64,000 bases of DNA from NCBI GenBank assembly GCA_041480425.1, contig JBGOZX010000005.1, forward strand, positions 2,568-66,567, in the 5' to 3' direction. Within the stretch, counting starts at the first letter, position 1. Each line of letters starts with the position of its first letter. The notes below the pieces were generated by a model, which worked only from the letters and a program-made list of their open reading frames with translations, did no database searches and had not been told where the DNA came from. Made by a program: the position numbers and the translations under genes. The DNA is from Bacteroidia bacterium (GTDB taxonomy: Bacteria > Bacteroidota > Bacteroidia > Bacteroidales > VadinHA17). This document shows, piece by piece, positions 2,121 through 38,214 of the stretch.

Positions 2121-2122
2121 CC

Positions 2123-2587: not shown

Positions 2588-2640
2588 AAACTGAAATGAT
2601 AAACTCAATTAAGTAATTCTTAAAGTTAAAAACTTATATT

Positions 2641-12835: not shown

Positions 12836-12859
12836 AACTTTCTGTTTTTCAATTTAAAA

Positions 12860-14020: not shown

Positions 14021-14037
14021 GATCTAACCGGATATTA

Positions 14038-18718: not shown

Positions 18719-18720
18719 GT

Positions 18721-19062: not shown

Positions 19063-19072
19063 TGTTAAGATT

Positions 19073-21158: not shown

Positions 21159-21165
21159 ACCAATA

Positions 21166-21390
21166 CTATACAACCATAGAATCATTCATTTCTTTCAGTA
21201 ATTCCAGAGTCTCCATAGCCTCTTTCTCGCTTATTTTCTGAATCGCAAAACCTGCGTGCAGAAGTACATAGTCTCCAATCTTTGCGTCTTCAATCAAATG
21301 AAGACCTGCTTTAAAAATTGCACCTCCGGCAGAAACATCTGCCATGGTGCCATCAATTGATATAATCCTGGCCGGAATGCTCAGACACAT
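21166..21390 (-). CDS. hypC: Hydrogenase maturation chaperone HypC
   Basis: Canonical N-terminus MCLSIP, with the essential Cys2 when started at 21390. Confidence 0.9.
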   Translation of the reverse strand: MCLSIPARIISIDGTMADVSAGGAIFKAGLHLIEDAKIGDYVLLHAGFAIQKISEKEAMETLELLKEMNDSMVV

Positions 21391-23644: not shown

Positions 23645-24303
23645 AGTTCAATGTTTTTTAATCCATCAACCTTCATAAGTTTGTGAACGTAATAGATGAC
23701 GCTTTCTAACTCATCACACAGGTTCACGTTATTAATAACCACATCAGGTGGCACTTTAAGCAAAACAGGAGCAAAATTTACTATCCCTTTGATGCCAAGT
23801 CTTACCAGCTCATCGCTTACCTCCTGAGCTGAAATTTCAGGAACAGCAATTATCGCAACTTTTACTCTGAATCTGTCTATTATCTCCTGTAACCGACTCA
23901 TCGAATAAACAGGGATATCCGATCGAATCTTCTGTTTGAACGGATCAATATCAAAGGTCGCAACAATATTCATATTACGCTGAACAAATTTGCTATACTT
24001 CGATAATGCAAGACCCATATTCCCCATTCCTATTAAAACAATATTATGGTCTTTATTGCGATGAAAGATGTTCTCCATCTTTTCCAGCAGGTCGTTTATC
24101 TCATAACCGCCCCTTTTATTGCCCCGAATATTGAATTCTGAGAAATCTTTCCTTACCTGGTCAGAAGTTACACCCGTCTCATTTGCAAGAGTATACGAAA
24201 ACACTCTTTCGACACCCATCATCTTAAGTCTGACCAGGCAGGCACGGTAAAGAAAAATCCTTTTCAGACTGTTTTTTATAACATATTTTGTGATTTGTTT
24301 CAC
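23620..24303 (-). CDS. rex: Redox-sensing transcriptional repressor Rex
   Basis: Winged-helix N-terminus (RIFLYRACL...VSS-like...DQVRKDFSEF), Rossmann motif VLIGMGNMGLAL and GIKGIVNFAP. It aligns with B. subtilis Rex along its length from memory. GTG start. Confidence 0.9.
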   Translation of the reverse strand: MKQITKYVIKNSLKRIFLYRACLVRLKMMGVERVFSYTLANETGVTSDQVRKDFSEFNIRGNKRGGYEINDLLEKMENIFHRNKDHNIVLIGMGNMGLALSKYSKFVQRNMNIVATFDIDPFKQKIRSDIPVYSMSRLQEIIDRFRVKVAIIAVPEISAQEVSDELVRLGIKGIVNFAPVLLKVPPDVVINNVNLCDELESVIYYVHKLMKVDGLKNIELLYKDMKY

Positions 24304-24305
24304 AT
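24288..24305. promoter_or_regulatory. Candidate Rex operator overlapping the rex start codon
   Basis: TTGTGATTTGTTTCACAT has perfect TGTGA-N6-TCACA half-sites (24289-24293 and 24300-24304), compared with the consensus TTGTGAAnnnnTTCACAA. Confidence 0.55.
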
Positions 24306-24470: not shown

Positions 24471-24488
24471 ATGTGAATCTTCTCACAT
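24471..24488. promoter_or_regulatory. Candidate Rex operator abutting the first ATG of the [NiFe] hydrogenase operon
   Basis: ATGTGAATCTTCTCACAT has perfect TGTGA-N6-TCACA half-sites (7-bp arms TATGTGA/TCACATA). It ends 2 nt before the ATG at 24491. Confidence 0.55.
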
Positions 24489-24490
24489 AA

Positions 24491-25483
24491 ATGCACTATT
24501 TAAGCATCAAAAAGGAAGAATGGGATAAAGCATTGGAACAGCTGCTATTATCTTATACCATTTTCGCTTCAGTAGAAAATGAATTTGGTCTGGACTATGA
24601 ATTGATCAGACCAGCCGATATTTCACGGATATCGTACAATAAACCAAAACCTGCAACATCACTTAAAAGCTTTTTCCTGCCTGTAAAGGAAAATGTTACA
24701 TCAGACAGAATCCGCGAAAAACCAAGAGTAATTTTGGGTATTCCAAATTGTGACATTGAGGGTTTGCGTCTCCTTGATGAAATTTACCTTGACAAAGACT
24801 TCAATGATATCTTCTACAGGAATCGTCGTGAAAATACCATACTTATCTCTTCCGATTGTTTTGGAAAGCAGGAGCATTGTCACTGCTTATCATATGATGT
24901 TAATCCGTATGCAACAAATAATGCGGACCTTTCAGTTATCCGGCAGGATGGAGTAATCGTTTTGCGTGTCATAACCAAAAAGGGGGAAGACTTTGCAGGA
25001 CAACTATCCCTTGTTCAACCCCTGGAAGATATAAATATTGTGTTAGCTATCGACCAGGAACATAAAGCTACGGAAAATTTACTTCTGGAATCAAATAAAG
25101 GACTACCTGATTATTCAGGTACAGGCAGGCTTATCAAAAAAGCTGGTGAAAAGATATGGGAAAAATACTCAGCTCAATGCGTCTCATGTGGTGCTTGTAC
25201 AACGATCTGTCCTACCTGTACATGTTTTCTGCTCATCGATAAACCCGGTTTTGAAAAAGTGAAACAGATGGATGCCTGTCAATATCCGGGCTTTGAAAGG
25301 GTGGCTGGAGGAGAAGATGCTCTTTTTGAGCTCCATAACCGGTTCAGGAACAGGTATCTGTGTAAATATGTCTGGAAGCCTGAGAAATTCAGGTCCAAAG
25401 CATGTACAGGATGCGGAAGATGTATTGAAGCCTGTATAGGAAAAATAAATAAAAATGAATTATTTCTTGAATTGGCAAAATAA
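24491..25483 (+). CDS. Fe-S subunit, sulfhydrogenase beta (HydB) / AsrA-like
   Basis: Cluster motifs CVSCGACTTICPTCTCF and CTGCGRCIEAC in the arrangement seen in Pyrococcus sulfhydrogenase beta and anaerobic sulfite reductase subunit A. Confidence 0.7.
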   Translation: MHYLSIKKEEWDKALEQLLLSYTIFASVENEFGLDYELIRPADISRISYNKPKPATSLKSFFLPVKENVTSDRIREKPRVILGIPNCDIEGLRLLDEIYLDKDFNDIFYRNRRENTILISSDCFGKQEHCHCLSYDVNPYATNNADLSVIRQDGVIVLRVITKKGEDFAGQLSLVQPLEDINIVLAIDQEHKATENLLLESNKGLPDYSGTGRLIKKAGEKIWEKYSAQCVSCGACTTICPTCTCFLLIDKPGFEKVKQMDACQYPGFERVAGGEDALFELHNRFRNRYLCKYVWKPEKFRSKACTGCGRCIEACIGKINKNELFLELAK

Positions 25484-26314
25484 GTGATAATGCTTAATAA
25501 CAAGAACATATATAAACCCATCAGGGCTGAACTGACAAATGTTATAGATGAATCATCTCTGATAAAAACTTTTGTCCTGATACCTGAAGAGGAGTTCTCG
25601 TTTAAAACAGGTCAGTTTATTGAATTATCAGTTGATGGAATCGGGGAAGCTCCGTTTACACCCTCCTCCTCCCCCCTTGTGAAAGAAAAACTTGAAGTAA
25701 CAGTAATGAAGACAGGCTATGTTACAGAATACATGCATGCTCTGAAACCCGGAATATACATGGGAATAAGAGGACCATATGGAAGAGGCTACCCGGTAGA
25801 GGTTTTTTTTGGTAAAGAAGTTCTTATTCTTGGTGGCGGTTGTGGTCTTGCTCCGATCAGGTCATTGCTTTACGCCCTTGAGAATATAAAAGACAATCTG
25901 GAAAAGGTTATCCTTTGTTACGGGTCTAAAACACCTTCAGATTGCATATATAAACCTCTTTTTGACCGTTTGAACAATACCCCAAAATTTGAAGCTTATC
26001 GCACAGTCGATAAAGCGGACGAAGAGTGGAATGGTTCCGTTGGAGTTGTAACTACTCTGCTCAATAAAATAAAGATCAATACAGAAAATTCCGTTGCAGT
26101 TGTTTGTGGCCCCCCGATCATGATGAAGTTCGGAACTATCAGGCTCCTTGAAATGGGATACAAAGATGATCAGATCTACCTTTCAATGGAAACTAACATG
26201 TCGTGCGGATTAGGTAAATGCGGGCATTGTATGCTGGGAGAATTTTTTGTCTGCAAGGATGGACCGGTTTTCACTTATAGTGAATTAAAAAGAACACCTG
26301 ACATATGGAAATAG
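25484..26314 (+). CDS. FAD/NAD(P)H-binding oxidoreductase with C-terminal [2Fe-2S], sulfhydrogenase gamma (HydG) / AsrB / PyrK-like
   Basis: FNR-like fold (GQFIELSV, LILGGGCGLAPI) and the C-terminal motif CGLGKCGHCMLGEFFVCKDGPVF. The start abuts the preceding stop. Confidence 0.75.
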   Translation: MIMLNNKNIYKPIRAELTNVIDESSLIKTFVLIPEEEFSFKTGQFIELSVDGIGEAPFTPSSSPLVKEKLEVTVMKTGYVTEYMHALKPGIYMGIRGPYGRGYPVEVFFGKEVLILGGGCGLAPIRSLLYALENIKDNLEKVILCYGSKTPSDCIYKPLFDRLNNTPKFEAYRTVDKADEEWNGSVGVVTTLLNKIKINTENSVAVVCGPPIMMKFGTIRLLEMGYKDDQIYLSMETNMSCGLGKCGHCMLGEFFVCKDGPVFTYSELKRTPDIWK

Positions 26315-26374
26315 CAAAATAATTCAGGTAATTAAACGAACTTAATTAATAAAGAATTAAAGAAAATAGATATC

Positions 26375-26830
26375 ATGAAACTGACAATAGATGAGTTGAA
26401 AAATATCCGGTTTTTTGACAACTATAATGATGAACAGTTGAAAATATTTATCGGAATCAGCTCTATAAAGGAATTCAAAGTAAAAGATATTTTGTTTGAA
26501 CAATATGATGAGCTTTCCGATGTTTATGTATTACTTGTAGGATGCTTATCCTTAGGAATAAGTCTGGCAAAAGAAAAGAGAATCCGCCTTGGGACATTAG
26601 AAGAAGGTCAGCTCTTTTCATGGTCTGCAGTTTTCAGTCCTCATATCTCTACGGCATGGGTAATGGCCACATGCCCTACAAAAGTACTGGCCATTGATGC
26701 CAAAAAACTCAATCTTGAGTTTGAAAAAAATTGTGAGTTTGGATTGAAAACAATGTCAAAAATTGCTCAGACTATTTCTCACCGGCTAAGTGATACAAGA
26801 TTCCAGCTTATGAACCAATTAACACTATAG
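26375..26830 (+). CDS. Stand-alone cyclic-nucleotide-binding-domain protein (no DNA-binding domain)
   Basis: 151 aa with a CAP/Crp-type beta-roll pattern (FFDNYNDEQL...ILFEQYDELSDVYVLLVG...LGTLEEGQLFSWSA). It ends after the C-helix. Confidence 0.6.
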   Translation: MKLTIDELKNIRFFDNYNDEQLKIFIGISSIKEFKVKDILFEQYDELSDVYVLLVGCLSLGISLAKEKRIRLGTLEEGQLFSWSAVFSPHISTAWVMATCPTKVLAIDAKKLNLEFEKNCEFGLKTMSKIAQTISHRLSDTRFQLMNQLTL

Positions 26831-26840
26831 TATTTCTATT

Positions 26841-27338
26841 ATGGATCAAAAAATCCTCATAGATCTGATTAAGTTACGCGAGATAATGACAGAGAATTGC
26901 GATCAGCCCTTGCCGGAAGCTTTATATTATCCGTCTCCCAATAGTAACGGGCTTAAGACAATCCGGGAACTTGCAGCATTCAGGTTCACGTGCAGAAAAT
27001 GTGAAGATGCTCCATGCATCAGTGTCTGTCCGGCTGATGCCCTGGAGAAAGATGAAGAGGGCATTATCTCAAGATATACAAATCTTTGTATCTCATGCAA
27101 ATCATGTGTGACCATCTGTCCTTTCGGAACTATGATGACTGACTTTTTTAAGCATCACAGGAATAAGGACCTGTTCTACGATCTGAAGGACGAAAAAGAA
27201 CTCATTAAATTTATTGAAGCTTGCCCTGAAGGAACAGTTTCGCTTATTGATTCCGATGAATCTCCCGAAAAAAATATTTTCAGGCTTAATGAAAAGGTAC
27301 TCATCAGGGAGCACCTATATGTAACTGAAAAACAGTAA
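26841..27338 (+). CDS. 2x[4Fe-4S] ferredoxin-like electron-transfer subunit (HycB-like)
   Basis: CRKCEDAPCISVCP and CISCKSCVTICP motifs. Confidence 0.7.
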   Translation: MDQKILIDLIKLREIMTENCDQPLPEALYYPSPNSNGLKTIRELAAFRFTCRKCEDAPCISVCPADALEKDEEGIISRYTNLCISCKSCVTICPFGTMMTDFFKHHRNKDLFYDLKDEKELIKFIEACPEGTVSLIDSDESPEKNIFRLNEKVLIREHLYVTEKQ

Positions 27339-27349
27339 ATAATATAACA

Positions 27350-28282
27350 ATGGCAGTTAATCTGTTTTACTTCCTTATCTTCCCCGGTCTGCTTTTTGCT
27401 GCAGTTACAGGCTGTTTCCTGTCATGGTTCGACAGGAAAATTACTGCCAGGGTCCAGTTCAGGAAGGGACCGCCTCTTCTGCAGCCTTTCTACGATTTTT
27501 TCAAACTATTATTAGTCAAGGAGACAATACTTCCTAAGTATGGTTCACCGCTGATATTTCTACTTGCACCTGTCTTCGCTGTTTTTGGTGCGACAATGGC
27601 AGGTGTCTTCATTCTTCTACCATTATTTAATATAACCACTGGTTTTAAAGGTGATCTGCTGGTGATCTTTTATCTTTTGACAATCCCTTCATTCTCATAT
27701 ATTATTGGCTCGCTGGCATCAGGAAATCCTCTTGCTGCAGTTGGTGGATCGAGGGAGATGAAACTGATCCTCAGCTACGAATTGACATTCATTCTCTTCA
27801 TTGCCGGGATAATAATGAAATGCGGGCAACAGTTTGACCTGTACAGCATTATACAGACTCAGCAGGCTGGGACTCCTTTTATCGGCAGCATCTCAGGAGG
27901 ACTGCTATTTATTGTCGGAGTTTTTTGTATCCAGGCAAAACTGGCTCTTGTGCCGTTCGACATGCCTGAAGCAGAAGCTGAAATTACCGAGGGTATTTTT
28001 ATTGAATATTCCGGATCGGCATACGCAATGATTAAACTTACAAAATATATAATGATGTTTATTCTTCCGGCCCTGTTGGTTGCGTTGCTGATGAGTGGTT
28101 TCAGGTTGGATGGAATCCATATTTTATGGGCTGTGTTAAAAGTCATGGGGATTGTTCTGCTTCTTACTCTGATAAGGAACACAAATCCCAGGATCAAAAT
28201 CAAACAGGCTGTCAACTTTTTCCTGGTTTGGATGAACCTGCTTGCAGTTATTGCACTTGTATTGATTTCGTTTGGTTATTAA
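27350..28282 (+). CDS. NuoH/HycD/MbhM-like membrane subunit
   Basis: Polytopic membrane protein with RKITARVQFRKGPP (the NuoH signature) and EAEAEITEG. Confidence 0.85.
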   Translation: MAVNLFYFLIFPGLLFAAVTGCFLSWFDRKITARVQFRKGPPLLQPFYDFFKLLLVKETILPKYGSPLIFLLAPVFAVFGATMAGVFILLPLFNITTGFKGDLLVIFYLLTIPSFSYIIGSLASGNPLAAVGGSREMKLILSYELTFILFIAGIIMKCGQQFDLYSIIQTQQAGTPFIGSISGGLLFIVGVFCIQAKLALVPFDMPEAEAEITEGIFIEYSGSAYAMIKLTKYIMMFILPALLVALLMSGFRLDGIHILWAVLKVMGIVLLLTLIRNTNPRIKIKQAVNFFLVWMNLLAVIALVLISFGY

Positions 28283-28307
28283 CTGTGTGTAATAAATACT
28301 TATAGTT

Positions 28308-28721
28308 GTGGGATTTAAAAGTTATTGCTTCAAAAAATCACTCTGGGTCTTCCACTTTGGAGGCGCTTCATGCAATAATTGTGATATCGAGATCCTTGAT
28401 TGTCTGACACCACGACACGATCTGGAGCGTTTCGGTATTCTGCTCGTTGGAAGCATCAGGCATGCAGATGTTCTGCTGGTGAACGGATCGATAAACATCC
28501 GCGACAGGGAGAGACTGATTGAGGTTTATAACCAGGCACCAAAGCCAATTCTTGTGGTCGCTATTGGTGCCTGCGGGTGCACCGGAGGGATTTTTACCGA
28601 AAGTTACACGTTTGCAGGTCCTGTCGACAAGATAATCCCTGTAAATGCTTATATCCCAGGGTGTCCTCCAAAACCTGAAGCTATAATTGCAGGTATTGTT
28701 AAACTAATTCAGAATACATAG
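28308..28721 (+). CDS. [NiFe] hydrogenase small subunit, NuoB/MbhJ/HycG-like
   Basis: GTG start. Proximal-cluster Cys pattern SCNNCDIE, GACGCTGG and IPGCPPKPE. Confidence 0.85.
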   Translation: MGFKSYCFKKSLWVFHFGGASCNNCDIEILDCLTPRHDLERFGILLVGSIRHADVLLVNGSINIRDRERLIEVYNQAPKPILVVAIGACGCTGGIFTESYTFAGPVDKIIPVNAYIPGCPPKPEAIIAGIVKLIQNT

Positions 28722-28779
28722 GTACGAGGTGTGCGGTATGAGGTGCGAGGAAGATTGACTAAATAGGAATTTGAGAAAA

Positions 28780-29232
28780 ATGGAAACAGAGTTGATCATA
28801 GAAAAATTCAAAGAAAAATTCAATTCTGATATTCTTGAGATATCAGAAAAGAATCAGAGACGTATGATCATTACAATAAGGCCTAATTCGATTATTAGTG
28901 TTGCGGATTATTTATATCAAACAGCAGGGTTCAGATTTATAATTGCTTCAGCCCTGCATACAAAAAAAGGATTTGAGATCCATTATCATTTCAGTAAAGA
29001 TGAAGCAGGATTGATACTTAACATACATGTGGTACTAGACAGAAAGAATCCACAGATTGAATCTCTGTCGAATATGTTTAACGCATCAAACTGGATAGAG
29101 AGGGAGATGCATGAGCTTTTTGGTATCAATTTCCTGAATCACCCTAACCAGGATAAACTGATATCAGAAGGGAACTGGGCAGAAGGAGTATATCCTCTTC
29201 GTAAAGAGTTTAAATCAACCACTGAGGAATAA
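28780..29232 (+). CDS. NuoC/MbhK-like subunit
   Basis: NWIEREMHELFGINF motif. The ATG at 28780 is preferred over the TTG at 28771. Confidence 0.8.
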   Translation: METELIIEKFKEKFNSDILEISEKNQRRMIITIRPNSIISVADYLYQTAGFRFIIASALHTKKGFEIHYHFSKDEAGLILNIHVVLDRKNPQIESLSNMFNASNWIEREMHELFGINFLNHPNQDKLISEGNWAEGVYPLRKEFKSTTEE

Positions 29233-29234
29233 GA

Positions 29235-30440
29235 ATGAGCAGAAAAACTCTTATACCAATTGGACCTTATCATCCATTGCAGGAGGAACCGGAATTATTC
29301 AAACTGTTTTGTGACGGTGAGATAGTGAAGGATATACAATGGGTGACCGGTTATAATCACAGAGGTATTGAAAAACTCAGTGAATCAAAGACTTATGAAC
29401 AGGTATTTTTCCTTGTAGAACGGATTTGCGGGATTTGCTCCACTTCGCACCCTTTTGCTTTTGCTAATGCAGTGGAGGAAATAGCCGGGATTGAAATAAC
29501 CAACAGAACAAAATATATCCGGTCTATAATCGGCGAACTTGAACGTATCCATAGTCACCTGCTGTGGGTGGGACTCGCAGGACATTTTCTCGGATACAAT
29601 ACTGTTTTCATGTGGGCATGGAAGTATCGCGAACCGGTACTCGACCTTTTTGAAATGATATCAGGTAACAGGAACAGCTATGCTATGTTCAAAGTCGGTG
29701 GTGTTCGCCGCGACATTGAGAATAGTAAGATTAATGCTATTCGCAAGGTTATGAACGATGTTAAGAAAAAAACTGACCTTCTTGCAGGTGCTGTTATGGA
29801 TGATCCTGTCATTCATGCCAGAACAAAAGGAGTCGGCATTCTGACAAAGCAGGATGTAATTGATTATGCTGCTGTTGGCCCGACTGCAAGAGCCTCCGGA
29901 GTGGGTATCGATGTAAGAAAAGATGATCCATATGCTGCCTATCCGATGGTCAACTGGAAAGTTATTACAGCCGAAGCCGGTGATGTATTTGCCAAGGCAG
30001 AGGTCAGACTACTGGAGATGTACGAATCAATTTCGATAATTGAACAATGTCTTGAGGGTCTGGAAAAAGAAAAAGAGGGAGATATAACGGTAAAAGTCAA
30101 GGAGATACCGGAGGGCATCGGGAATGGCCGTGCAGAAGCACCCAGGGGCGAAGTATTTCATTTTGTCGTATCTGATGGTTCCAATTCACCTGCAAGACAT
30201 AAAATACGTGCTCCGAGTTATGTCAATATAGCCACTTTTAAAAAATCATGCATAGGTCAGACTATTGCTGATGCGACAATTTCGCTAGCAGCAGTCGATC
30301 CATGCTACTGCTGCACCGAAAGAATGGCAGTTGCTTATGATATTAATTCAGGCGAGAAAATAATGAATGCCAGAGAGTTGATTGATTTATCATTAATGAG
30401 GTCGGAGGAATTAAAGAAAAAACTTAACAGATTAATATGA
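29235..30440 (+). CDS. Group-4 [NiFe] hydrogenase large subunit (NuoD/MbhL/HycE-like)
   Basis: L1 motif RICGICSTSH and L2 motif DPCYCCTER, so all four Ni-Fe Cys ligands are present. A 38-aa tail follows the L2 motif. Confidence 0.9.
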   Translation: MSRKTLIPIGPYHPLQEEPELFKLFCDGEIVKDIQWVTGYNHRGIEKLSESKTYEQVFFLVERICGICSTSHPFAFANAVEEIAGIEITNRTKYIRSIIGELERIHSHLLWVGLAGHFLGYNTVFMWAWKYREPVLDLFEMISGNRNSYAMFKVGGVRRDIENSKINAIRKVMNDVKKKTDLLAGAVMDDPVIHARTKGVGILTKQDVIDYAAVGPTARASGVGIDVRKDDPYAAYPMVNWKVITAEAGDVFAKAEVRLLEMYESISIIEQCLEGLEKEKEGDITVKVKEIPEGIGNGRAEAPRGEVFHFVVSDGSNSPARHKIRAPSYVNIATFKKSCIGQTIADATISLAAVDPCYCCTERMAVAYDINSGEKIMNARELIDLSLMRSEELKKKLNRLI

Positions 30441-32296
30441 ATGAGATTATCAGCATAATATTATTGCCGGTCGTAACCGGACTGCTGCTTTTCTTCGTTC
30501 CTGACAAACTGAGAACTGTCAAAGGGATTATTGCACTGATAATCAGCATAATTACAGGTTACCTGACAGTTGTGATATATGGTTCAGAATATCATTTGGG
30601 AACCATTGATGAAATATCCGGCGGGTCAGGTTTGTTATTTTCCGGTTTTGATTTTCTGAAAGATGCTGCCAGATACCTTACATTTAACATCGACAATCTC
30701 AGTAAGCTTATCATATTGTTTATCAGTATTTTTGCCTTGCTGATCCTGTTATATTCACTTGTTTATATCAAGAAAGGAAGAGTCAAAAACTATTATCCAT
30801 ACTTCCTTATCACAATTGGTTGTTCATATGGAGCAGTATTTTCTGACAATCTTCTATTATTCCTTTTGTTCTGGGGAATACTGGGGATAACACTCTATAA
30901 GCTAATCCCCGGGCGTAATGAAGAGAGTTCTGCAACTGCAAAGAAAACACTTATTTTAATCGGGGCATCTGATACGATAATGATAATCGGTATTGCAATA
31001 ATCTGGAGGCTGACCGGATCATTAAGCATGAACAGCATCTCCTTACCAACTACCAACATTATTTCAGTAACAGCATTTCTTGCTCTGCTGGTCGGAAGTT
31101 TCACAAAAGCAGGTGCCTTCCCTTTTCACACATGGGTTCCTGATTATGCTAAAGATGCTCCGGCATCCTCATCTGCCCTGCTTCCAGCTTCACTCGATAA
31201 ACTACTCGGGATATACTTCCTCGCCAGGATCACAACCAGTATGTTCGTTCTTAATGAAGCGATGACTTTCTTGCTTCTGTTAACAGGGGTTATAACAATC
31301 ATAATTGCTGTTATGATGGCCCTTATTCAGCATAATTACAAACGATTGCTCGGATTCCACGCAGTATCCCAGGTTGGATACATGATCCTTGGATTTGGTC
31401 TGGGCTCAACAATTGGAATTGCTGCCGGTCTTTTCCACATGATTAACCATGCTCTTTATAAGAGCGGACTGTTCCTATCTGCTGGAAGTATTGAGTACCG
31501 TACAGGTGAAGAAAATATTGATGAACTTGGAGGTCTTTCCAGAGCAATGCCTGTTACTTTCTTTGCATCTCTGGTTTTTGCAATGTCAATTTCAGGGGTT
31601 CCTCCCCTAAACGGTTTCGCCTCAAAATGGATGATCTACCAGGGAATAATCGAATTTGGCAGCGGATCCGGTCTGGTAAATAAACTCTGGATCTTATGGT
31701 TAGGATTAGCTGTGCTAGGTTCAGCCTTAACGCTTGCCAGCTTCATCAAGTTCATCGGGGGAATTTTCCTGAGCCGTCGTAAAACTAGTTTTGAAAAAGT
31801 CAGGGAGGTACCTTTTTTGATGTGGATGCCATTAGTAATTCTTGCATTGTTCTGTATTGTCTTTGGTGTATTGGCGACAAACTTAATAGTGCCAAAGCTT
31901 TTTATGCCGGTATCGGGTGAATTCCAGTTTATCGGATTCTGGAATTCCACTTTTGTATCCCTGCTTGTACTGATCTCAATTATTCTCGGGATTATTGTCT
32001 ACCTAGCAACGAATATTAAAAAGTTCAGAACTGATGATAGTTTTATTGGTGGTGAAAAAATTCAGGATCAGACCAGTTATCCTACTCCGGAATTCTACAA
32101 AACGATCGGAGAATTCGGATTTTTTTCGTGGATGTATAAAAAGGCTGAAGAGAAGTGGTTTGATATTTATGACATTTCAAAGAAGTTTGTTCTCTGGTTT
32201 AGCCATCAATTGAGTGAAGCTCACACTGGTGTTTTACCCGGCTATGTAATCTGGGTTTTTGCAGGATTAATTATTATGCTACTCATTATGATATAA
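30437..32296 (+). CDS. NuoL/MrpA-N/HycC-like antiporter-type membrane subunit
   Basis: 619 aa and polytopic. Motifs WVPDYAKDAP, HAVSQVGYM and HMINHALYKSGLFL. Confidence 0.85.
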   Translation: MNEIISIILLPVVTGLLLFFVPDKLRTVKGIIALIISIITGYLTVVIYGSEYHLGTIDEISGGSGLLFSGFDFLKDAARYLTFNIDNLSKLIILFISIFALLILLYSLVYIKKGRVKNYYPYFLITIGCSYGAVFSDNLLLFLLFWGILGITLYKLIPGRNEESSATAKKTLILIGASDTIMIIGIAIIWRLTGSLSMNSISLPTTNIISVTAFLALLVGSFTKAGAFPFHTWVPDYAKDAPASSSALLPASLDKLLGIYFLARITTSMFVLNEAMTFLLLLTGVITIIIAVMMALIQHNYKRLLGFHAVSQVGYMILGFGLGSTIGIAAGLFHMINHALYKSGLFLSAGSIEYRTGEENIDELGGLSRAMPVTFFASLVFAMSISGVPPLNGFASKWMIYQGIIEFGSGSGLVNKLWILWLGLAVLGSALTLASFIKFIGGIFLSRRKTSFEKVREVPFLMWMPLVILALFCIVFGVLATNLIVPKLFMPVSGEFQFIGFWNSTFVSLLVLISIILGIIVYLATNIKKFRTDDSFIGGEKIQDQTSYPTPEFYKTIGEFGFFSWMYKKAEEKWFDIYDISKKFVLWFSHQLSEAHTGVLPGYVIWVFAGLIIMLLIMI

Positions 32297-32311
32297 TTAA
32301 TAAAAGCTGAA

Positions 32312-32839
32312 ATGGACCTGGCCATATCGATAATTGTAGGACTCATGATTCTAGGGGCGCTGTATGCTATCCATGCAAAGGATCTGCTTTCATCAGTAAT
32401 AGCTTGTGGTATTGTAGGTTACAGCTTAGTTATATGTTTCCTGTTGCTGAAAGCTCCCGACCTGGCAATTGTTCAGATCGTAGTTGATACAATAACTCTG
32501 ATCATTATGGTTGCAGTTGTCCTCGACAGTTCGAGGGAGGAATCATATTCAAAACTTGACACACAGGGATATATTTCAGCAGTAACTGGTATTTTAATGA
32601 TAATGATATTCCTTTATTTCTTTGCTGTTTCAATCCAGTCACTTGATGTTCTTGGGAAAAGCTCGTTACGAATGGCAGAATACTATATTGAAGGTGCTGC
32701 ACAAAAAACAGGTAGTGCAAATCTGGTTACTGGTGTTGTATTTGACTTCAGGGGTTACGATACTATGGGTGAAGCGGTTGTCCTTGTAACGGCTGTATTA
32801 GGGGTACTTACAATTTTAAGATTAAAAGGTAAAAAATAG
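32312..32839 (+). CDS. MrpA C-terminal-like subunit (MbhD/MbhE-like)
   Basis: DUF4040-like helices (DLAIVQIVVDT) followed by NLVTGVVFDFRGYDTMGE. Confidence 0.7.
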   Translation: MDLAISIIVGLMILGALYAIHAKDLLSSVIACGIVGYSLVICFLLLKAPDLAIVQIVVDTITLIIMVAVVLDSSREESYSKLDTQGYISAVTGILMIMIFLYFFAVSIQSLDVLGKSSLRMAEYYIEGAAQKTGSANLVTGVVFDFRGYDTMGEAVVLVTAVLGVLTILRLKGKK

Positions 32840-32859
32840 AAGAATGTTATTTGGATATC

Positions 32860-32872
32860 GAACAAGGATTAA
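32860..32872. repeat. Left arm of the 13-bp perfect inverted repeat flanking the four-helix-bundle gene
   Basis: GAACAAGGATTAA is the exact reverse complement of 33296-33308. Confidence 0.8.
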
Positions 32873-32882
32873 AGAATGAAGA

Positions 32883-33272
32883 ATGACGATTAGTAAGATT
32901 AACAAAATTGATTTGGAAGAGCGGCTAATAAATTTTGCCGTGCTGATTGTCGAAATATGTGAGAATATGAAGGATACAAAATCCTCAAATCACATGGCTG
33001 GACAATTAATCCGTTCCGGGACATCACCTGCATTGAACTATGGTGAAGCTCAGAGTGGTGAATCCAGAAAAGATTTTATTCATAAAATCAAAATCGTTCT
33101 AAAAGAACTAAGAGAGAGTTTTGTGTGCCTGAAGATTATCCATTGAAGCAAACTATGTAAATCGGAAGAGAAAATAAAACAGGCAATGAATGAGAATAAT
33201 GAATTAATCTCAATTTTTGTTAAGAGCGTAGAAACGGCACAGAAAAACCTAAAAAATGAAACTCATACATAA
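32883..33272 (+). pseudogene. Four-helix-bundle protein gene (23S rRNA intervening-sequence protein / Avd family) interrupted by an in-frame TGA
   Basis: QLIRSGTSPALNYGEAQSGESRKDFIHKIKIVLKELRES matches the family core. There is a TGA at 33144-33146. The same frame continues 41 more codons (SKLCKSEEKIKQAMNENNELISIFVKSVETAQKN...), which looks like the normal C-terminal helix. Confidence 0.7.
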
Positions 33273-33295
33273 AATAATTCTAAAATCTTAAATCG

Positions 33296-33308
33296 TTAAT
33301 CCTTGTTC
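33296..33308. repeat. Right arm of the 13-bp perfect inverted repeat flanking the four-helix-bundle gene
   Basis: TTAATCCTTGTTC. The adjacent AATCG (33291-33295) also pairs with CGATT at 32887-32891. Confidence 0.8.
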
Positions 33309-33350
33309 TTAAATCAATTATGAACTCTTAAAAATATAGACCAGACTCCA

Positions 33351-33788
33351 ATGAAAGGGATGACTTTAATAGTAAAAAAGACTACTCAGCTTATCGCTGG
33401 TATGATTTTCATGTACGGAATTTATGTCATAGTGCATGGTCATCTTACGCCCGGCGGAGGCTTCGCAGGAGGAGTTATTATTGCAGGTTCATTTATCCTC
33501 GTAACACTTGCATATGGCGGTGATTTTATGAAGCTTGTAAAAGAAGAGGCAGGGACTACCATTGTTGAAAGTTTAGCTACCATCATGGTAATAATAATTG
33601 CCACAGCAGGTTTTTTATTTGGGACGAAAATCTTTTTTAACAATTTTCTTCCTAAAGGAGTTGTCGGACAACTTGTAAGTGCCGGTGTTTTACCCCTTTA
33701 CAATATTTTTATTGGAACCGAGGTTGCTGCATCAATATTTATAATATTTCTTTCACTAATAATCTTTAAGGAGGAGTCACCGCAATGA
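33351..33788 (+). CDS. MrpB/MnhB-like subunit
   Basis: The HGHLTPGGGFAGG motif near the N-terminus matches the MrpB signature GHNxPGGGFxGG. Confidence 0.8.
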   Translation: MKGMTLIVKKTTQLIAGMIFMYGIYVIVHGHLTPGGGFAGGVIIAGSFILVTLAYGGDFMKLVKEEAGTTIVESLATIMVIIIATAGFLFGTKIFFNNFLPKGVVGQLVSAGVLPLYNIFIGTEVAASIFIIFLSLIIFKEESPQ

Positions 33789-34123
33789 TCGCATATATAA
33801 TGTGTTTCATATTATTTCTTGTTGGATTGTACGGGGTAATAACCAGGAGAAACCTGGTTAAAATAGCAGTTTCACTAACAATAATGGAAATAAGCACCTT
33901 CCTTTTCTTTGCTCTTATCGGATACATCGACGGAGGTGTTGCACCAATAGTAGACCCCGCTGATCCGGTAAAAGTATATGTCGACCCGTTACCACAGGCT
34001 TTGGTACTCACGGCTATCGTAATCGGACTGGCAACAACCTCAATGCTTATGGCGGTCATTATCAGGCTTTACAGAAAGTACGGGACATTCGATATCAGAG
34101 AGATTAAAAATTTAAGAGGATAA
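33785..34123 (+). CDS. MrpC/MnhC/NuoK-like subunit
   Basis: 112 aa, 3 TM helices, 4-nt overlap with the preceding gene. Confidence 0.75.
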   Translation: MIAYIMCFILFLVGLYGVITRRNLVKIAVSLTIMEISTFLFFALIGYIDGGVAPIVDPADPVKVYVDPLPQALVLTAIVIGLATTSMLMAVIIRLYRKYGTFDIREIKNLRG

Positions 34124-34126
34124 AAA

Positions 34127-35665
34127 ATGAATCCACTGATACCATTATTTGTCGTTACACCTCTGGCCGGAGCTTTCCTGATAATGATTATCGGAAGGTT
34201 TATCAAGGAGTTTAACAAGTACTTTACATCTCTGTTACTTCTTTTCCTTGTCATTATCAGTTTTTATTCCCTTTTCACAACAGGTGAAAATCTATCTGTT
34301 TATAAAGTCGGAGGATGGGAGCCAATTAATAAAGTTCCAGTCGGTATTTATATGGTTATGGATGGCTTCACTTCAATTGTTGTTTGCATTATTAATCTTA
34401 TTGGCTTCTTATCAGCCTTTTATTCAATCTCATATATAAAAAGATATACCGCTGAGAATTATTTCTACGCTTTATTCTGTCTGATGATTGCCGGAATGAA
34501 TGGAGTGGTGCTCAGCGGCGACCTGTTCAATATATTTGTATTCCTCGAAATTTCAGTTATATCGTCATATGCTTTAGTAGCATTCGGAGTTGAAAAGAAT
34601 GAGTTGGAGGCTTCATTTAAGTACCAGGTTTTGGGAGCACTGGCTTCATTTCTAATTCTGTTCGGTATCGGGTTTATTTACTGGAAAACCAAAACACTGA
34701 ATATTGCTGATATTAAAGAAGCTTTCAGTAATGGTTATGATAAAACATATTATCTTTTTGTTCAGATACTTCTTTTAAGCGGCTTTGGTCTTAAAGCTGC
34801 CATTATTCCTTTTCATGCATGGTTACCCGATGCTCATTCATCAGCACCATCTCCTATTTCAGCGATGCTTTCAGGTGTTCTCATCAAAGCTGTAGGCATT
34901 TATGTAATTTTAAGGTTATTCTTTAATATGTTCGTTGTGAGCGAAGGAATGGCAATCCTGATAACCACGCTGGGAACCTTATCAATGGTAATCGGAGTTT
35001 TCCTGGCTATAGGGCAATGGGATATTAAAAGGCTCCTGGCATATCATAGTATCAGCCAGATGGGGTATGTGGTTCTTTCAGTCGGTATCGGCATGATTCT
35101 GGTTTCAAGGGGCTCAAAACCGGAAATTGCAGCCCTGGCCATTACCGGTGGAATTTTCCATCTGATTAATCATGCAGCTTTTAAAGGTCTCTTATTCCTT
35201 AATGCAGGGGCAATTGAATATACGATCGGCACACGCGATCTTAAAGAGATGGGTGGATTGGCCAGTTCGATGCCGGCAACATCTGCCACCTCTTTTGTTG
35301 CATCAATGTCTATCTCAGGAATACCACCATTTAATGGGTTTTTCAGCAAGCTGATAATCATAATAGCTGCTGTTATGGCTAAGTTTTATCTGCTTGCAGC
35401 GCTTGCAGTAATAGTCAGCATTATTACTCTTGCTTCATTCCTGAAATTCCAGCGATATGCCTTCTTCAATAAATCTGATGTTAATAAAAATCAGCAGATA
35501 AAAGAAGTTCCATTTCCCATGGTATTCAGCATGGTTGTCTTAAGTATTATTTGTGTTGTTCTCAGCCTGCTTGTCATCCCCGATATCAGGGATGCAATAC
35601 TGACTCCTGCGATCAATATTCTTACGGATCCTTTAAAATACTCTTCAATAATAATCGGACAATAA
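34127..35665 (+). CDS. MrpD/NuoM/N-like antiporter-type membrane subunit
   Basis: 512 aa. Motifs WLPDAHSSAPSPISAMLSG, YHSISQMGY and HLINHAAFKGLLFL. Confidence 0.85.
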   Translation: MNPLIPLFVVTPLAGAFLIMIIGRFIKEFNKYFTSLLLLFLVIISFYSLFTTGENLSVYKVGGWEPINKVPVGIYMVMDGFTSIVVCIINLIGFLSAFYSISYIKRYTAENYFYALFCLMIAGMNGVVLSGDLFNIFVFLEISVISSYALVAFGVEKNELEASFKYQVLGALASFLILFGIGFIYWKTKTLNIADIKEAFSNGYDKTYYLFVQILLLSGFGLKAAIIPFHAWLPDAHSSAPSPISAMLSGVLIKAVGIYVILRLFFNMFVVSEGMAILITTLGTLSMVIGVFLAIGQWDIKRLLAYHSISQMGYVVLSVGIGMILVSRGSKPEIAALAITGGIFHLINHAAFKGLLFLNAGAIEYTIGTRDLKEMGGLASSMPATSATSFVASMSISGIPPFNGFFSKLIIIIAAVMAKFYLLAALAVIVSIITLASFLKFQRYAFFNKSDVNKNQQIKEVPFPMVFSMVVLSIICVVLSLLVIPDIRDAILTPAINILTDPLKYSSIIIGQ

Positions 35666-35666
35666 G

Positions 35667-36152
35667 ATGAGATATATCACTTTGTTTATATTATCCCTGA
35701 TATTCTGGCTGCTTCTCACCTTTAAGCTGACTGTTCCTAATATAATAGTCGGAACTGTCGCTTCAATTATTTGTTCTTTGTTTTTTGGCAGGTTCTTTAT
35801 CACAAATGTTTATAAACTTCTGCAACCTGAACGCTATTTCTGGTTTATAATTTACCTCTTCATTTTCATATGGGAATGTATAAAAGCTAATATAGATGTT
35901 GCTTACCGGGTGCTTCATCCTGCAATGCCAATCCGGCCCGGAATAGTGAAAGTTAAAACCACATTAAAGTCTGATTTTGCAAAAATGCTGCTTGCAAATT
36001 CAATTACAATGACACCCGGAACAATTTCAGTCGATATTATAGATGACAATCTCTATATCCATTGGATCTATATCAGGTCAGAAGATCCTGAAGTTTACAC
36101 AGAAATGATAACCGGAGCTTTTGAAAAGTATATTAAAAGAATAATAGAATGA
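35667..36152 (+). CDS. MrpE/MnhE-like subunit
   Basis: Size, two N-terminal TM helices, the motif ANSITMTPGT, and position before the MrpF/G homologues. Confidence 0.7.
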   Translation: MRYITLFILSLIFWLLLTFKLTVPNIIVGTVASIICSLFFGRFFITNVYKLLQPERYFWFIIYLFIFIWECIKANIDVAYRVLHPAMPIRPGIVKVKTTLKSDFAKMLLANSITMTPGTISVDIIDDNLYIHWIYIRSEDPEVYTEMITGAFEKYIKRIIE

Positions 36153-36415
36153 GCAATTACCTGAACATATTGCTGTACGTCCAGATAGGATTAAGTGTAA
36201 TCTGCCTTTACAGGATAATCAGAGGACCAACAATCCCTGACAGAATGGTTGGAGTTGATATATTCGGAATTCTTGTTGTAGGTATCTGTGCCATAATAGC
36301 TATTCAAACCGAGAGATCCTTTATTCTTGATATAGGGATTGCATGGATAATTTTAAGTTTCATCGGTACATTGACTCTGGCAAAGTACCTGACCGGTAAA
36401 AAACTAAATGAATAA
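36149..36415 (+). CDS. MrpF/MnhF-like subunit
   Basis: 88 aa, 3 TM helices, motif RIIRGPTIPDRMVGVD. Confidence 0.75.
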   Translation: MSNYLNILLYVQIGLSVICLYRIIRGPTIPDRMVGVDIFGILVVGICAIIAIQTERSFILDIGIAWIILSFIGTLTLAKYLTGKKLNE

Positions 36416-36734
36416 TATGATTAGTTTAATATTCATAACGATCGGAATACTTTTTAACCTGTTAGGGTGCATTGGAATAATCAGGCTTCCTGATACTTAT
36501 AACAGACTTCAGGCAGCCACAAAATGTGTGACTCTGGGGTGTTGCAGTATACTTCTGGGAGTTCTGTTCCATTTTGGATTCAGTGATGCAGGTGCAAAAG
36601 CACTGATTGCGATACCGATACTCTTCTTTGCTTCTACGGTAGGAGCACATGCGCTTATCAGGGGAACCTACCATTTCGGGATAAAGCTCGGAAAAAAAAG
36701 TGTAAAAGATGATTATAAAGATGCCATAAAATGA
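36408..36734 (+). CDS. MrpG/MnhG-like subunit
   Basis: 108 aa. GIIRLPDTYNRLQAATK matches the MnhG signature. Confidence 0.75.
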   Translation: MNNMISLIFITIGILFNLLGCIGIIRLPDTYNRLQAATKCVTLGCCSILLGVLFHFGFSDAGAKALIAIPILFFASTVGAHALIRGTYHFGIKLGKKSVKDDYKDAIK

Positions 36735-37351
36735 AGTATCCAAAGATCAGAGAATTAAAGGAGGCAGTTATTTCATTGGTTTCTCCGGCTTATACTTCGA
36801 AGTTTCCTGCTGAACCTCATATTCCATTCGAAAAATTCAGAGGCAAGCCTGTTGTTGATGATGAGAATTGTGTTGGTTGCGAGACCTGTGCAAATGTTTG
36901 TCCTCCCCAGGCAATAACATTTACCGATGACAAAGACAAAGAAATAAGGACCATAAAGAGAGACTATGGGAAATGCATCTTCTGTGGTCAATGCCAGGAT
37001 CATTGTATAACACAGAGAGGCGTCAGGTTATCTGATAAGATCTTTGATCTGGCAGTTTTCGACAGGGAAAAAAATGTTGAATACCAGGAAAAAGAACTCC
37101 TTATCTGCGAAAGCTGCAACGCTGTTATAACTACCAAAGAACATCTCTATTATATGCACAGGAAACTTGGGCCGAAAGCATTCGCTTCCATTCTTAATCT
37201 GAACCTTCTGAATCAAAAATTGAGGCTGGCAGACGGGCAGGATATAAAAGTTGAAATAAAAGATAAGCTGAAAAGAAAGGATATGTTCAACGTCATTTGT
37301 CCAAACTGCCTGAGACAGATCCTTGTAAAATACTTATATAAAGGTGTTTGA
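36731..37351 (+). CDS. NuoI/MbhN/HycF-like 2x[4Fe-4S] subunit
   Basis: CVGCETCANVCPP and CIFCGQCQDHC motifs, with additional C-terminal CxxC pairs. Confidence 0.8.
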   Translation: MKYPKIRELKEAVISLVSPAYTSKFPAEPHIPFEKFRGKPVVDDENCVGCETCANVCPPQAITFTDDKDKEIRTIKRDYGKCIFCGQCQDHCITQRGVRLSDKIFDLAVFDREKNVEYQEKELLICESCNAVITTKEHLYYMHRKLGPKAFASILNLNLLNQKLRLADGQDIKVEIKDKLKRKDMFNVICPNCLRQILVKYLYKGV

Positions 37352-37811
37352 GGACCTTGACAAACTTCTGTCACAAAAAGACAAAAAGATACTTTTTGTC
37401 GGAATAGGGAATCTTCTTAAAATGGATGATGGGGTTGGTGTTTATATAAGCAGAAAAATAAAAAAGACCCTCACTATTTCGGCACTGACAGTTGAAGCCA
37501 GCATCGAAAATTATATTGGCAAAATAAATACCCTTAATCCTGAAATACTTATCCTGATTGATTGTGTGGACATAAAAGCAACTCCCGGAACAATTAAATT
37601 ACTAACGATAAACCAGATACAGGATCTGACATTCAACACACACAATATATCGCTGCAAAAGTTATCGGGATTCTTCAGTATGCCGGTTTTTATTCTTGGA
37701 ATACAACCAGAAAAAATTGCTTTTGGAGAAAATATATCCTATATTGTAAGGAATGAGGCTGATAAAATTATTAACCAAATAAATACACAGGAGGTACATT
37801 ATGGCTACTGA
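37344..37811 (+). CDS. Hydrogenase maturation endopeptidase (HycI/HyaD family)
   Basis: GTG start overlapping the preceding stop. Motifs FVGIGNLLKMDDGVG and LIDCVD. Confidence 0.8.
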   Translation: MFEDLDKLLSQKDKKILFVGIGNLLKMDDGVGVYISRKIKKTLTISALTVEASIENYIGKINTLNPEILILIDCVDIKATPGTIKLLTINQIQDLTFNTHNISLQKLSGFFSMPVFILGIQPEKIAFGENISYIVRNEADKIINQINTQEVHYGY

Positions 37812-38214
37812 ATATCTATGCAAAGTTTGCAGAGGTCATCTTAAAGTGAAAACTTCCATAGTCCTTTCTGCCACAAAAACTAACGGTTCCAAAAGAGGCT
37901 TAGTTTTTTTGAATCCTGAGATCGGGAACTACACAACCACAACACATCCTTCTTTCCAGATTAAAGAAGGTGAAGAATTTATCTATACCTGCCCCATCTG
38001 TCACTCGCAATTAAATAGTGCCAAGTACAATCACCTTGTCAGAATAATAATGATTGATGATGATGGAAAGGAGTTTAACATTTACTTTTCAGGTATAGCG
38101 GGTGAAAAATGTACTTATAAGATCAGGGGAACCAAAATCGAAAAGAAAGGTCCTGATGCTTCACTGTATGATAAGTACTTCGACGTACCTGAGGAAGACA
38201 GGAAATATCTTTAA
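37801..38214 (+). CDS. Uncharacterised zinc-ribbon protein, last gene of the hydrogenase operon
   Basis: CKVC...CPIC pairs. The ATG overlaps the protease gene by 11 nt. I recognise no family. Confidence 0.5.
   Translation: MATEYLCKVCRGHLKVKTSIVLSATKTNGSKRGLVFLNPEIGNYTTTTHPSFQIKEGEEFIYTCPICHSQLNSAKYNHLVRIIMIDDDGKEFNIYFSGIAGEKCTYKIRGTKIEKKGPDASLYDKYFDVPEEDRKYL

Follow-up and report, generated by a model that had tools for sequence, protein, structure and literature searches.

Why should an operon for a membrane-bound [NiFe] hydrogenase with a full set of Mrp genes begin with a flavin module for NAD(P)H? This question is raised by a stretch of 64,000 nucleotides (64 kb; hereafter the window) from a Bacteroidia bacterium of the VadinHA17 lineage (GCA_041480425.1, contig JBGOZX010000005.1, positions 2,568 to 66,567). 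Here, a same-strand (+) block at 24491-38214 holds sulfhydrogenase-type beta and gamma subunits, a HycB-like ferredoxin, an Mbh-type hydrogenase and an Mrp set, as seen in the open reading frame (ORF) listing and in Pfam/NCBIfam scans. We propose that the encoded proteins form a single membrane complex, a formate hydrogenlyase (FHL)-like 'NAD(P)H hydrogenlyase' built on a full Mrp-type arm, and put the probability of this reading at about 0.62. The proposal starts from observations on gene content, ligand conservation, obligate synteny, Rex sites and in situ transcription of an ortholog.

Gene content of the operon

The operon genes are numbered g1 to g19 in order, and L-numbers denote related loci.

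24491..25483, +: g1, sulfhydrogenase-beta/AsrA-like Fe-S subunit with three predicted [4Fe-4S] clusters (Pfam Fer4_22)
25484..26314, +: g2, sulfhydrogenase-gamma/AsrB-like subunit for flavin adenine dinucleotide (FAD), NAD(P)H and [2Fe-2S] (Pfam FAD_binding_6, NAD_binding_1, DHODB_Fe-S_bind)
26375..26830, +: g3, cyclic nucleotide (cNMP)-binding-fold protein without DNA-binding domain, accessory (Pfam cNMP_binding, 1e-9)
26841..27338, +: g4, HycB-type connector ferredoxin with 2x[4Fe-4S] (Pfam Fer4_11)
27350..28282, +: g5, NuoH/HycD/MbhM-like membrane subunit (Pfam NADHdh, 5.8e-63)
28308..28721, +: g6, NuoB/HycG/MbhJ-like small subunit with [4Fe-4S] (Pfam Oxidored_q6)
28771..29232, +: g7, NuoC/MbhK-like subunit (Pfam Complex1_30kDa)
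29235..30440, +: g8, group-4 [NiFe] large subunit with the L1 motif RICGICSTSH and the L2 motif DPCYCCTER (Pfam Complex1_49kDa and NiFeSe_Hases)
30437..32296, +: g9, antiporter-like subunit 1, MrpA N-terminal/NuoL/HycC-like (Pfam Proton_antipo_M; PDB matches MbhH, MrpA, HycC, MbsH')
32312..32839, +: g10, MbhD+MbhE, MrpA C-terminal part (Pfam MbhD, MbhE)
33351..33788, +: g11, MrpB/MnhB-like (Pfam MnhB)
33785..34123, +: g12, MrpC/NuoK-like (Pfam Oxidored_q2)
34127..35665, +: g13, antiporter-like subunit 2, MrpD/MbhH-like (PDB matches MbhH 1e-81, MrpD 2e-72)
35667..36734, +: g14-g16, MrpE, MrpF and MrpG (Pfam MNHE, MrpF_PhaF, PhaG_MnhG_YufB)
36731..37351, +: g17, HycF-type 2x[4Fe-4S] subunit with a C-terminal CxxC...CxxC site (NCBIfam FHL iron-sulfur subunit)
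37344..37811, +: g18, HycI-type maturation endopeptidase (Pfam HycI; TIGR00072, 80 bits against a cutoff of 47)
37801..38214, +: g19, 137-residue CxxC...CxxC (zinc-ribbon) protein of no family (no Pfam/NCBIfam match)

Gene names, coordinates and plus strand of the original prediction were all borne out, and so were its overlapping or abutting junctions for most gene pairs in the ORF listing. The same holds for the four Ni-Fe cysteines of the large subunit, read in RICGICSTSH and DPCYCC, and for the two antiporter-like subunits (g9 and g13, from PDB matches). Its count of 19 genes has to be raised to 20 ORFs, the overlooked one being a four-helix-bundle gene at 32883-33146. The subunit described as NuoI-like is present, its type being refined to HycF rather than MbhN: g17 matches HycF (7Z0S_F, 8e-19) better than MbhN (1.3e-12), and HycF has the same C-terminal cysteine pairs.

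The only PDB match of g1 is the beta subunit of Pyrococcus furiosus soluble hydrogenase I (SHI; 9NEZ_B, 1.2e-32), while g2 aligns over its full length to SHI gamma (9NEZ_C, 3e-50), an alignment that takes in GxGxxP, CGPP and the [2Fe-2S] site Cx4Cx2C...C. The gamma motifs for NAD(P)H, FAD and [2Fe-2S] read beforehand are intact across the family, as GxGxxP, CGP and Cx4Cx2C..C are kept in 122 of 122 homologs (47-89% identity) with zero stop codons. Conservation extends to the predicted cluster ligands: invariant are 15 of the 16 cysteines of beta (106 sequences), the eight of the HycB-like protein (128 sequences) and C22, C25, C89 and C119 of g6 (143 sequences). Twelve cysteines of g17, i.e. 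eight cluster ligands plus the C-terminal CxxC...CxxC, are invariant or near-invariant in 94 sequences. Taken over the beta, HycB-like, HycF-like and NuoB-like subunits, this pattern suggests purifying selection on the whole electron wire.

The catalytic core carries the hallmarks of group 4, namely a NuoD fold with RxCGxCxxxH and DPCxxC, a NuoB-like [4Fe-4S] small subunit and NuoH- and NuoL-like subunits. Those of its maturation are present as well, with HycI in the operon, hypFCDEAB adjoining and a 38-residue C-terminal tail on g8 after DPCYCCTER, which is predicted to be cleaved by HycI-type processing. In the PDB, g8 matches MbhL (5.5e-85) and HycE (8e-77), and g4 matches proteins of the HycB type (9MQX_E, HycB3/4 of the hydrogen-dependent CO2 reductase HDCR, and HycB of FHL). 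Pairwise identities set the large subunit apart as a member of its own clade: g8 is 40% identical to MbhL versus 60-71% within this clade, and large subunits of clusters linked to beta/gamma share 63-71% with each other versus 40-45% with P. furiosus MbhL and 35-39% with Escherichia coli HycE. The L1/L2 signatures are common to the large subunits of these clusters. In the membrane arm, the Glu of transmembrane helix (TM) 5 and the Lys residues of TM7, TM8 and TM12 of g13 align with those of MbhH and are conserved; g9 keeps the TM7, TM8 and TM12 Lys.

How does the operon compare with characterised systems? The best solved match for g8 and g13 is the P. furiosus membrane-bound hydrogenase (MBH; MbhA-N, HydDB 4d, PDB 6CFW), with which the window operon shares the Mrp-derived module (MrpB/C/D/E/F/G homologs), NuoH/B/C-like subunits and a cytoplasmic Ni-Fe site. 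The ion module is complete, comprising MbhD/E, MnhB, MrpC, MrpD, MrpE, MrpF and MrpG. MBH, however, takes ferredoxin directly at MbhN, has no flavoprotein, no HycB connector and one antiporter-like subunit, and its Mrp genes come first. In the window operon, the Mrp genes follow the hydrogenase genes, there are two antiporter-like subunits, and in place of the MbhN-type subunit of 4d enzymes, which have neither flavoprotein nor connector, beta/gamma, a HycB-type and a HycF-type protein are obligately linked.

Closer in the logic of its peripheral arm is E. coli FHL-1 (HycBCDEFG plus FdhF; 4a, PDB 7Z0S), in which electrons run from the dehydrogenase through HycB, HycF and HycG to HycE. As in FHL-1, g17 matches HycF best, g4 is of the HycB type, and HycI processing is indicated, here from the genes. 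Since both linkers are of FHL type, the peripheral arm can be regarded as FHL-like, with beta/gamma standing for FdhF. In contrast to FHL-1, the input is an FAD/NAD(P)H-binding beta/gamma pair instead of a molybdopterin FdhF, a full Mrp set replaces HycC/HycD only, and the HycB-like protein has two clusters versus four; neither a molybdopterin formate dehydrogenase nor a carbon monoxide dehydrogenase (CODH) belongs to the operon, and the Pfam scans found no molybdopterin or CooS gene in it. From SHI (group 3b, PDB 9NEZ) come the full-length homologs of beta and gamma, with all cluster, FAD and NAD(P)H motifs aligned, so that the Fe-S, FAD and NAD(P)H features of the 3b pair are present. Unlike SHI, the operon has no soluble group-3 alpha/delta catalytic pair; its large subunit is group-4/NuoD-like (g8 reaches only 36 and 25 bits with the NCBIfam ShyA and HydA models), and beta/gamma are wired to a membrane-bound group-4 enzyme.

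Conserved arrangement, Rex boxes and transcription

The original prediction called the operon chimeric and implied that the combination is unusual, which overstates the case: the arrangement is ancient and conserved in a large multi-phylum family and is not a local chimera. We scanned one genome per GTDB species for large-subunit relatives and took up the best 80 loci. At least 567 species-level genomes hold close relatives, and the best 80 are all metagenome-assembled genomes (MAGs) of Bacteroidales/Bacteroidota. Among the Bacteroidales genome loci that reach far enough upstream, all carry the full set, including beta (60), gamma (62) and the HycB-like gene (63). In an HMMER search with beta over 1.84 billion representatives, 180 clusters reached E<1e-30. 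Among the full-length representatives, the seven nearest (33-43% identity), labelled, where a source is given, Spirochaetota, Omnitrophota, Planctomycetota or Elusimicrobiota, all lie in the same order, beta-gamma-HycB-NuoH-NuoB-NuoC-large subunit-NuoL-MbhDE-MnhB-MrpC-MrpD-MrpE-F-G. To avoid the bias of a beta query, metagenome contigs were scanned with a large-subunit alignment headed by an Elusimicrobiota sequence; beta, gamma and the HycB-like gene stood in this order before every large-subunit gene, 40 of 40, whose contig extends at least 4.6 kb upstream. The co-occurrence of beta/gamma upstream of Mrp-Mbh clusters, suggested as a check of the original prediction, was thus found in every locus with enough flank, and the family spans at least five phyla. 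GC content is even over the whole window; on this ground and on that of synteny across phyla, a recent chimera or a horizontal island was rejected.

Two genes vary within this frame. Of 62 Bacteroidales loci, only 33 carry the g3-type cNMP gene; it was also seen in a few loci from metagenomes and not in other phyla. By eye, g3 seems to be without the phosphate-binding Arg of CRP-type sites (...PHISTAWV...), and its position between gamma and HycB is that of a formate dehydrogenase-like (Fdh-like) gene in a sibling variant. The other, g19, overlaps the stop codon of hycI, is 56-89% identical in 60 loci, and is found only in Bacteroidales-type clusters and absent from those of other phyla; it is possibly an accessory or maturation factor specific to the lineage.

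Further variants were seen among the related loci. A short form without Mrp genes (L115, L134) reads beta-gamma-HycB-NuoHBCD-NuoL-HycF-HycI, and an extra antiporter-like subunit of about 470 residues directly follows the large subunit in L086, L089, L100, L104, L114, L120, L124 and L164. In L119 and L130, an interval of 0.7-1.0 kb between gamma and the HycB-like gene matches neither a cNMP gene nor an Fdh-sized one. In an Omnitrophota MAG (L084/L085), the cluster shares its strand with rex, follows immediately downstream of it and adjoins genes for formyltetrahydrofolate synthetase (FTHFS), RACo, a CooC-like protein and DUF3786; these Wood-Ljungdahl neighbours suggest a role in acetogen-like metabolism in that lineage.

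Upstream of the operon, the following elements were found:

18065..23542, -: hypF-hypC-hypD-hypE-hypA-hypB, downstream of rex (Pfam HypF, HypD, AIRS (HypE), HypA, cobW/HypB)
23620..24303, -: rex, redox-sensing repressor, divergent from the operon (Pfam Put_DNA-bind_N and CoA_binding; NCBIfam Rex equivalog)
24289..24304, no strand: Rex box 1 TGTGATTTGTTTCACA, over the rex start (exact palindrome core)
24472..24487, no strand: Rex box 2 TGTGAATCTTCTCACA, 19 nucleotides upstream of the g1 ATG (exact match)

The HypC-like ORF of this group lies at about 21166-21390 and starts with MCLSIP. Rex boxes had been predicted at the promoter, and we indeed found two exact cores adjoining a bona fide Rex protein (214 bits versus a cutoff of 138 for the NCBIfam equivalog), i.e. 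both parts of a Rex regulon, the protein and operators of the TTGTGAA-N4-TTCACAA type. Exact TGTGA-N6-TCACA sites occur only twice in the 64 kb, both within the 187-bp spacer between rex and g1. A rex gene adjoins the operon in 58 of the related Bacteroidales loci. In 58 related loci, box 1 is kept at about -200 in 58 of 58 and box 2 at -19/-20 of the beta start codon in 53; similar boxes stand just upstream of beta in relatives from other phyla, many of which have no rex beside the cluster. A window-wide search with an 18-mer Rex consensus allowing three mismatches returned 13 sites where 7.3 were expected, which is not above chance, and our argument therefore rests on the exact cores, their location and phylogenetic footprinting. 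A sigma-70 promoter scan, which does not cover Bacteroidota promoters, gave 58 sites against 49.8 expected in shuffles and hence no excess. Judged from these sites, Rex would repress both the operon and the divergent rex-hyp genes and allow expression when NADH/NAD+ is high, and such expression upon NADH build-up would fit a function in reductant disposal.

Only sediment DNA runs contain the window sequence, and no RNA runs with it were found. Co-transcription was hence examined in the L008 ortholog, from a fen MAG with an 89% identical large subunit, whose operon was found in 20 metatranscriptome runs from peat or wetland. RNA contigs from four runs cover the operon from beta to g19, with low depth in the rex/hypF flank and downstream of g19 in three of them. 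Single contigs span beta-gamma, gamma-cNMP-HycB (1078 nucleotides), cNMP-HycB-NuoH, HycB-NuoH-NuoB, large subunit-NuoL, MrpC-MrpD, MrpE-F-G-HycF and HycF-HycI. The proposed co-transcription across the gap between gamma and the cNMP gene is thereby supported in an ortholog. The L008 MAG contig itself has small assembly gaps (5729-5732, 7247-7250 and about 9516-9542) through which the metatranscriptome contigs read, supplying missing sequence such as 104 letters at 7247-7250. Within the window operon, the terminator scan returned only weak terminator-like sites. Gene junctions, Rex boxes and the ortholog RNA contigs support a single transcription unit and, together with synteny, place the beta/gamma pair in one unit with the Mrp-linked group-4 hydrogenase, as had been claimed.

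Proposed reaction and competing explanations

What could such an enzyme do? We suggest that NAD(P)H would be oxidised at gamma, with its FAD and [2Fe-2S] cluster, and that electrons would then pass through three [4Fe-4S] clusters in beta, two in the HycB-like connector and two in the HycF-like subunit to the [4Fe-4S] cluster of the NuoB-like small subunit and the Ni-Fe site in g8. Beta/gamma would take the place that FdhF has in E. coli FHL. Through the NuoH-like g5, the redox reaction would be coupled to the two antiporter-like subunits and to MrpB/C/E/F/G, and NAD(P)H + H+ <-> NAD(P)+ + H2 would be tied to the movement of H+ or Na+. The standard potentials (E0') are -320 mV for NAD(P)+/NAD(P)H and -414 mV for H+/H2 with H2 at 1 bar; H2 formation from NAD(P)H amounts to +18 kJ/mol under standard conditions and is near equilibrium at sediment H2 levels. 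An ion gradient could therefore assist H2 formation or be built by the reaction, and the enzyme may be reversible. In the fermentative Bacteroidales host, its role would most likely be that of a reductant valve making H2, assisted by the ion gradient or close to equilibrium with it; in other hosts, this enzyme could operate in the direction of H2 uptake.

Several points weigh against this proposal. The subunit contacts, that between beta and the HycB-like protein among them, the nucleotide specificity, the direction, the ion and its stoichiometry are what we infer. Residues K/R149 and T/S150 of gamma are invariant and align with the Arg of the NADPH-specific SHI gamma, a hint at NADPH, to which Rex does not respond. 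In other bacteria, hydrogenases that depend on ferredoxin are under Rex control too, so that the Rex boxes leave NADH as substrate unproven. In g9, a Gly stands in place of the TM5 Glu of MbhH and g13 (FWGIL versus FLEIM). The RNA evidence consists of assembled contigs from a relative that do not show the strand, and in run X16, for which DNA carry-over is possible, coverage extends to the flanks as well. The window furthermore encodes a HydABC-type [FeFe] hydrogenase at 11054-14502 (- strand; HydA of 593 residues, a short NuoF-like HydB of 386 and a NuoE-like HydC of 154), which could handle NADH. This gene set, 10 kb away from the [NiFe] operon, is not preceded by a Rex box; the host has two hydrogenases that are possibly linked to pyridine nucleotides. 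Finally, papers based on HydDB treat such Mbh-Mrp enzymes as ferredoxin-dependent (PMC8542988, PMC9324843, PMC11257099), and in the literature searched we found no biochemical or structural characterisation of any family member. The latter agrees with the original prediction; the architecture of a sibling had, however, already been noted in silico (PMC6349859, PMC13582414).

This literature deserves a closer look. In HydDB, 4d enzymes are given as coupled to ferredoxin and linked to Mrp, and 4g is a loose class without characterisation (PMC5037454); according to Loh et al., not one 4g enzyme had been characterised (PMC7886697). The label 4g is in use for relatives in Omnitrophota, Elusimicrobiota and Cloacimonadota, and for the Mbh-Mrp enzymes of Cloacimonadota, Omnitrophota, Auribacterota and Endomicrobium, it comes with ferredoxin as the assumed donor (PMC8542988, PMC9324843, PMC11257099). 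The Fdh-like sibling is called 4b. Matheus Carnevali et al. reported asrA, asrB, cooF and a molybdopterin oxidoreductase adjoining an Mrp-linked group-4 hydrogenase in Saganbacteria (PMC6349859), and Meheust et al. described an 'Mbh-Mrp-oxidoreductase' type of unknown function in Elusimicrobia (10.1101/765248). A paper of September 2026 proposed bifurcation from an AlphaFold3 model for 4b clusters with an inactive Fdh-like protein and homologs of SHI beta/gamma (PMC13582414). Caldithrix abyssi, considered as a cultured host, has no group-4 enzyme according to its paper. In the literature searched, no paper was found that deals with the beta/gamma-only form or with its expression, obligate linkage or control by Rex. 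The window enzyme is the sibling, with beta/gamma only, of an architecture for which all descriptions to date are in silico.

A ferredoxin-dependent Mbh, in which beta/gamma form a side branch that splits ferredoxin electrons between H+ and NAD(P)+, is unlikely in our view, if well worth weighing. Such an enzyme would act as an ion-translocating ferredoxin:NAD(P)+ oxidoreductase plus hydrogenase, Rnf- or Mbx-like in role. It would suit the closest solved large and antiporter subunits, which come from the ferredoxin-dependent P. furiosus MBH, the annotation of HydDB 4g/4d enzymes as ferredoxin-coupled (PMC5037454), and the reduced ferredoxin that fermenters of this kind produce. The subunit at which MBH docks ferredoxin is, however, of HycF type here and comes with a HycB-type connector, as in FHL with its bound dehydrogenase; the operon holds no ferredoxin gene; and about 100 loci keep beta-gamma-HycB strictly in this order directly before NuoH, which suggests a fixed input module.

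Could H2 formation be driven jointly by two donors, NAD(P)H and either ferredoxin or some other substrate, in an electron-confurcating or bifurcating enzyme? The idea derives from the Fdh-like group 4(b) Mbh-Mrp sibling (Saganbacteria RX5A; PMC6349859, PMC13582414, 10.1101/765248), which has the same gene order but for one gene, and for whose 4b clusters AlphaFold3 gave a three-branch Fe-S network with SHI beta/gamma and the inactive Fdh-like protein (PMC13582414). L173, a member of this variant (beta-gamma-Mo-HycB-NuoH-B-C-large subunit-antiporters), has a large subunit in the same clade, 60-64% identical to those studied here. Yet the Fdh-like third branch is absent from the window operon, and no Fdh-sized insert between gamma and HycB was found in any of the 52 related metagenome loci checked (52/52). 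The wire is hence linear and two-ended, and the bifurcation proposed for the sibling is not directly transferable. In addition, the only flavin is the FAD of gamma, of the ferredoxin-NADP+ reductase (FNR) type, with no bifurcating flavin of NfnB, HydB or EtfAB type encoded in the operon, and the genome has a separate HydABC. We regard confurcation as improbable.

Quite improbable, too, is an enzyme working mainly in H2 uptake, i.e. an ion-pumping H2:NAD(P)+ oxidoreductase yielding NAD(P)H and some ion gradient. This would be in line with the Omnitrophota cluster L084, which adjoins rex and Wood-Ljungdahl genes, and with SHI, the source of the beta/gamma homology, which is reversible and NADPH-linked judging by the title of Xiao et al. 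2025, cited in PMC13582414. Derepression by Rex at high NADH fits reductant disposal better. Moreover, the group-4 enzymes characterised to date evolve H2, at sediment H2 levels little or no energy is available toward NAD+, and uptake would be the same enzyme in reverse rather than a different machine.

That beta/gamma are a remnant of an AsrAB-type sulfite reductase or a separate upstream transcription unit, an alternative raised by the original prediction, is exceedingly improbable and was rejected: the resemblance to Salmonella AsrABC (g1 118 bits versus a cutoff of 323 for AsrA, g2 206 versus 289 for AsrB), which makes MAG pipelines often label such genes asrA/asrB, is similar to that to the sulfhydrogenase models and below the curated cutoffs throughout (for g1 with ShyB, HydB and AsrA alike), whereas the Pfam/NCBIfam scans found no siroheme catalytic subunit AsrC in the operon, the genes after g2 being those for the cNMP and HycB-like proteins, the linkage holds in all of about 100 informative loci across phyla, the junctions are tight, the Rex boxes and promoter region lie upstream of beta and not of HycB or NuoH, and RNA contigs bridge gamma to HycB.

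Returning to the FHL-like NAD(P)H hydrogenlyase, what would follow for the family as a whole? We see an even chance that the beta/gamma-HycB-Mbh-Mrp family is a widespread membrane enzyme coupling NAD(P)H/NAD(P)+ directly to H2 via an ion gradient. Electron transfer from NAD(P)H to H2 is central in the bioenergetics of anaerobes, and the known routes are soluble confurcating enzymes of the HydABC type or very low H2. A membrane enzyme that links this transfer to an ion gradient would add a third. If this holds, pyridine nucleotides could serve fermenters and syntrophs as a source of H2 with no need for electron confurcation, or H2 could provide them with NAD(P)H and ion-motive force. MAG studies would then misfile the family as a ferredoxin-dependent 4g/4b hydrogenase plus an AsrAB sulfite reductase, reconstructions of sediments, peat and digesters may give a major H2 source or sink the wrong donor, and asrA/asrB labels may yield a false potential for sulfite reduction. 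The two-ended beta/gamma-only form would be a cleaner test object than its Fdh-like sibling.

An inserted cassette and other features of the window

The ORF missing from the original gene count belongs to a small insertion:

32860..33308, +: cassette with 23-nucleotide inverted-repeat arms around a four-helix-bundle gene (Pfam 23S_rRNA_IVP (PF05635), TIGR02436)

Its arms lie at 32860-32882 and 33286-33308. The four-helix-bundle frame runs from 32883 to 33273, and an in-frame TGA (CGA to TGA) at 33144-33146 leaves the ORF 32883-33146; where this stop codon stands, Arg is encoded in the orthologs of L002, L016 and L028. The cassette sits between mbhDE (g10) and mnhB (g11) in a 512-bp interval, the largest break of the operon. 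Only three of about 75 related genome loci carry it, and it is therefore a sporadic insertion outside the enzyme. RNase III might cut at the stem formed by the cassette and so split the mRNA. This insertion was seen in L002, L016, L028, L149 and L156 as well.

Elsewhere in the window, an ORF of 1463 residues at 47417-51808 (- strand) joins an AcrB-type resistance-nodulation-division (RND) pump (residues 5-1034) to an OEP outer-membrane-factor domain (residues 1276-1460) and adjoins genes for a membrane-fusion protein and a cation-efflux protein. A second heavy-metal efflux cluster lies at 42-3692.

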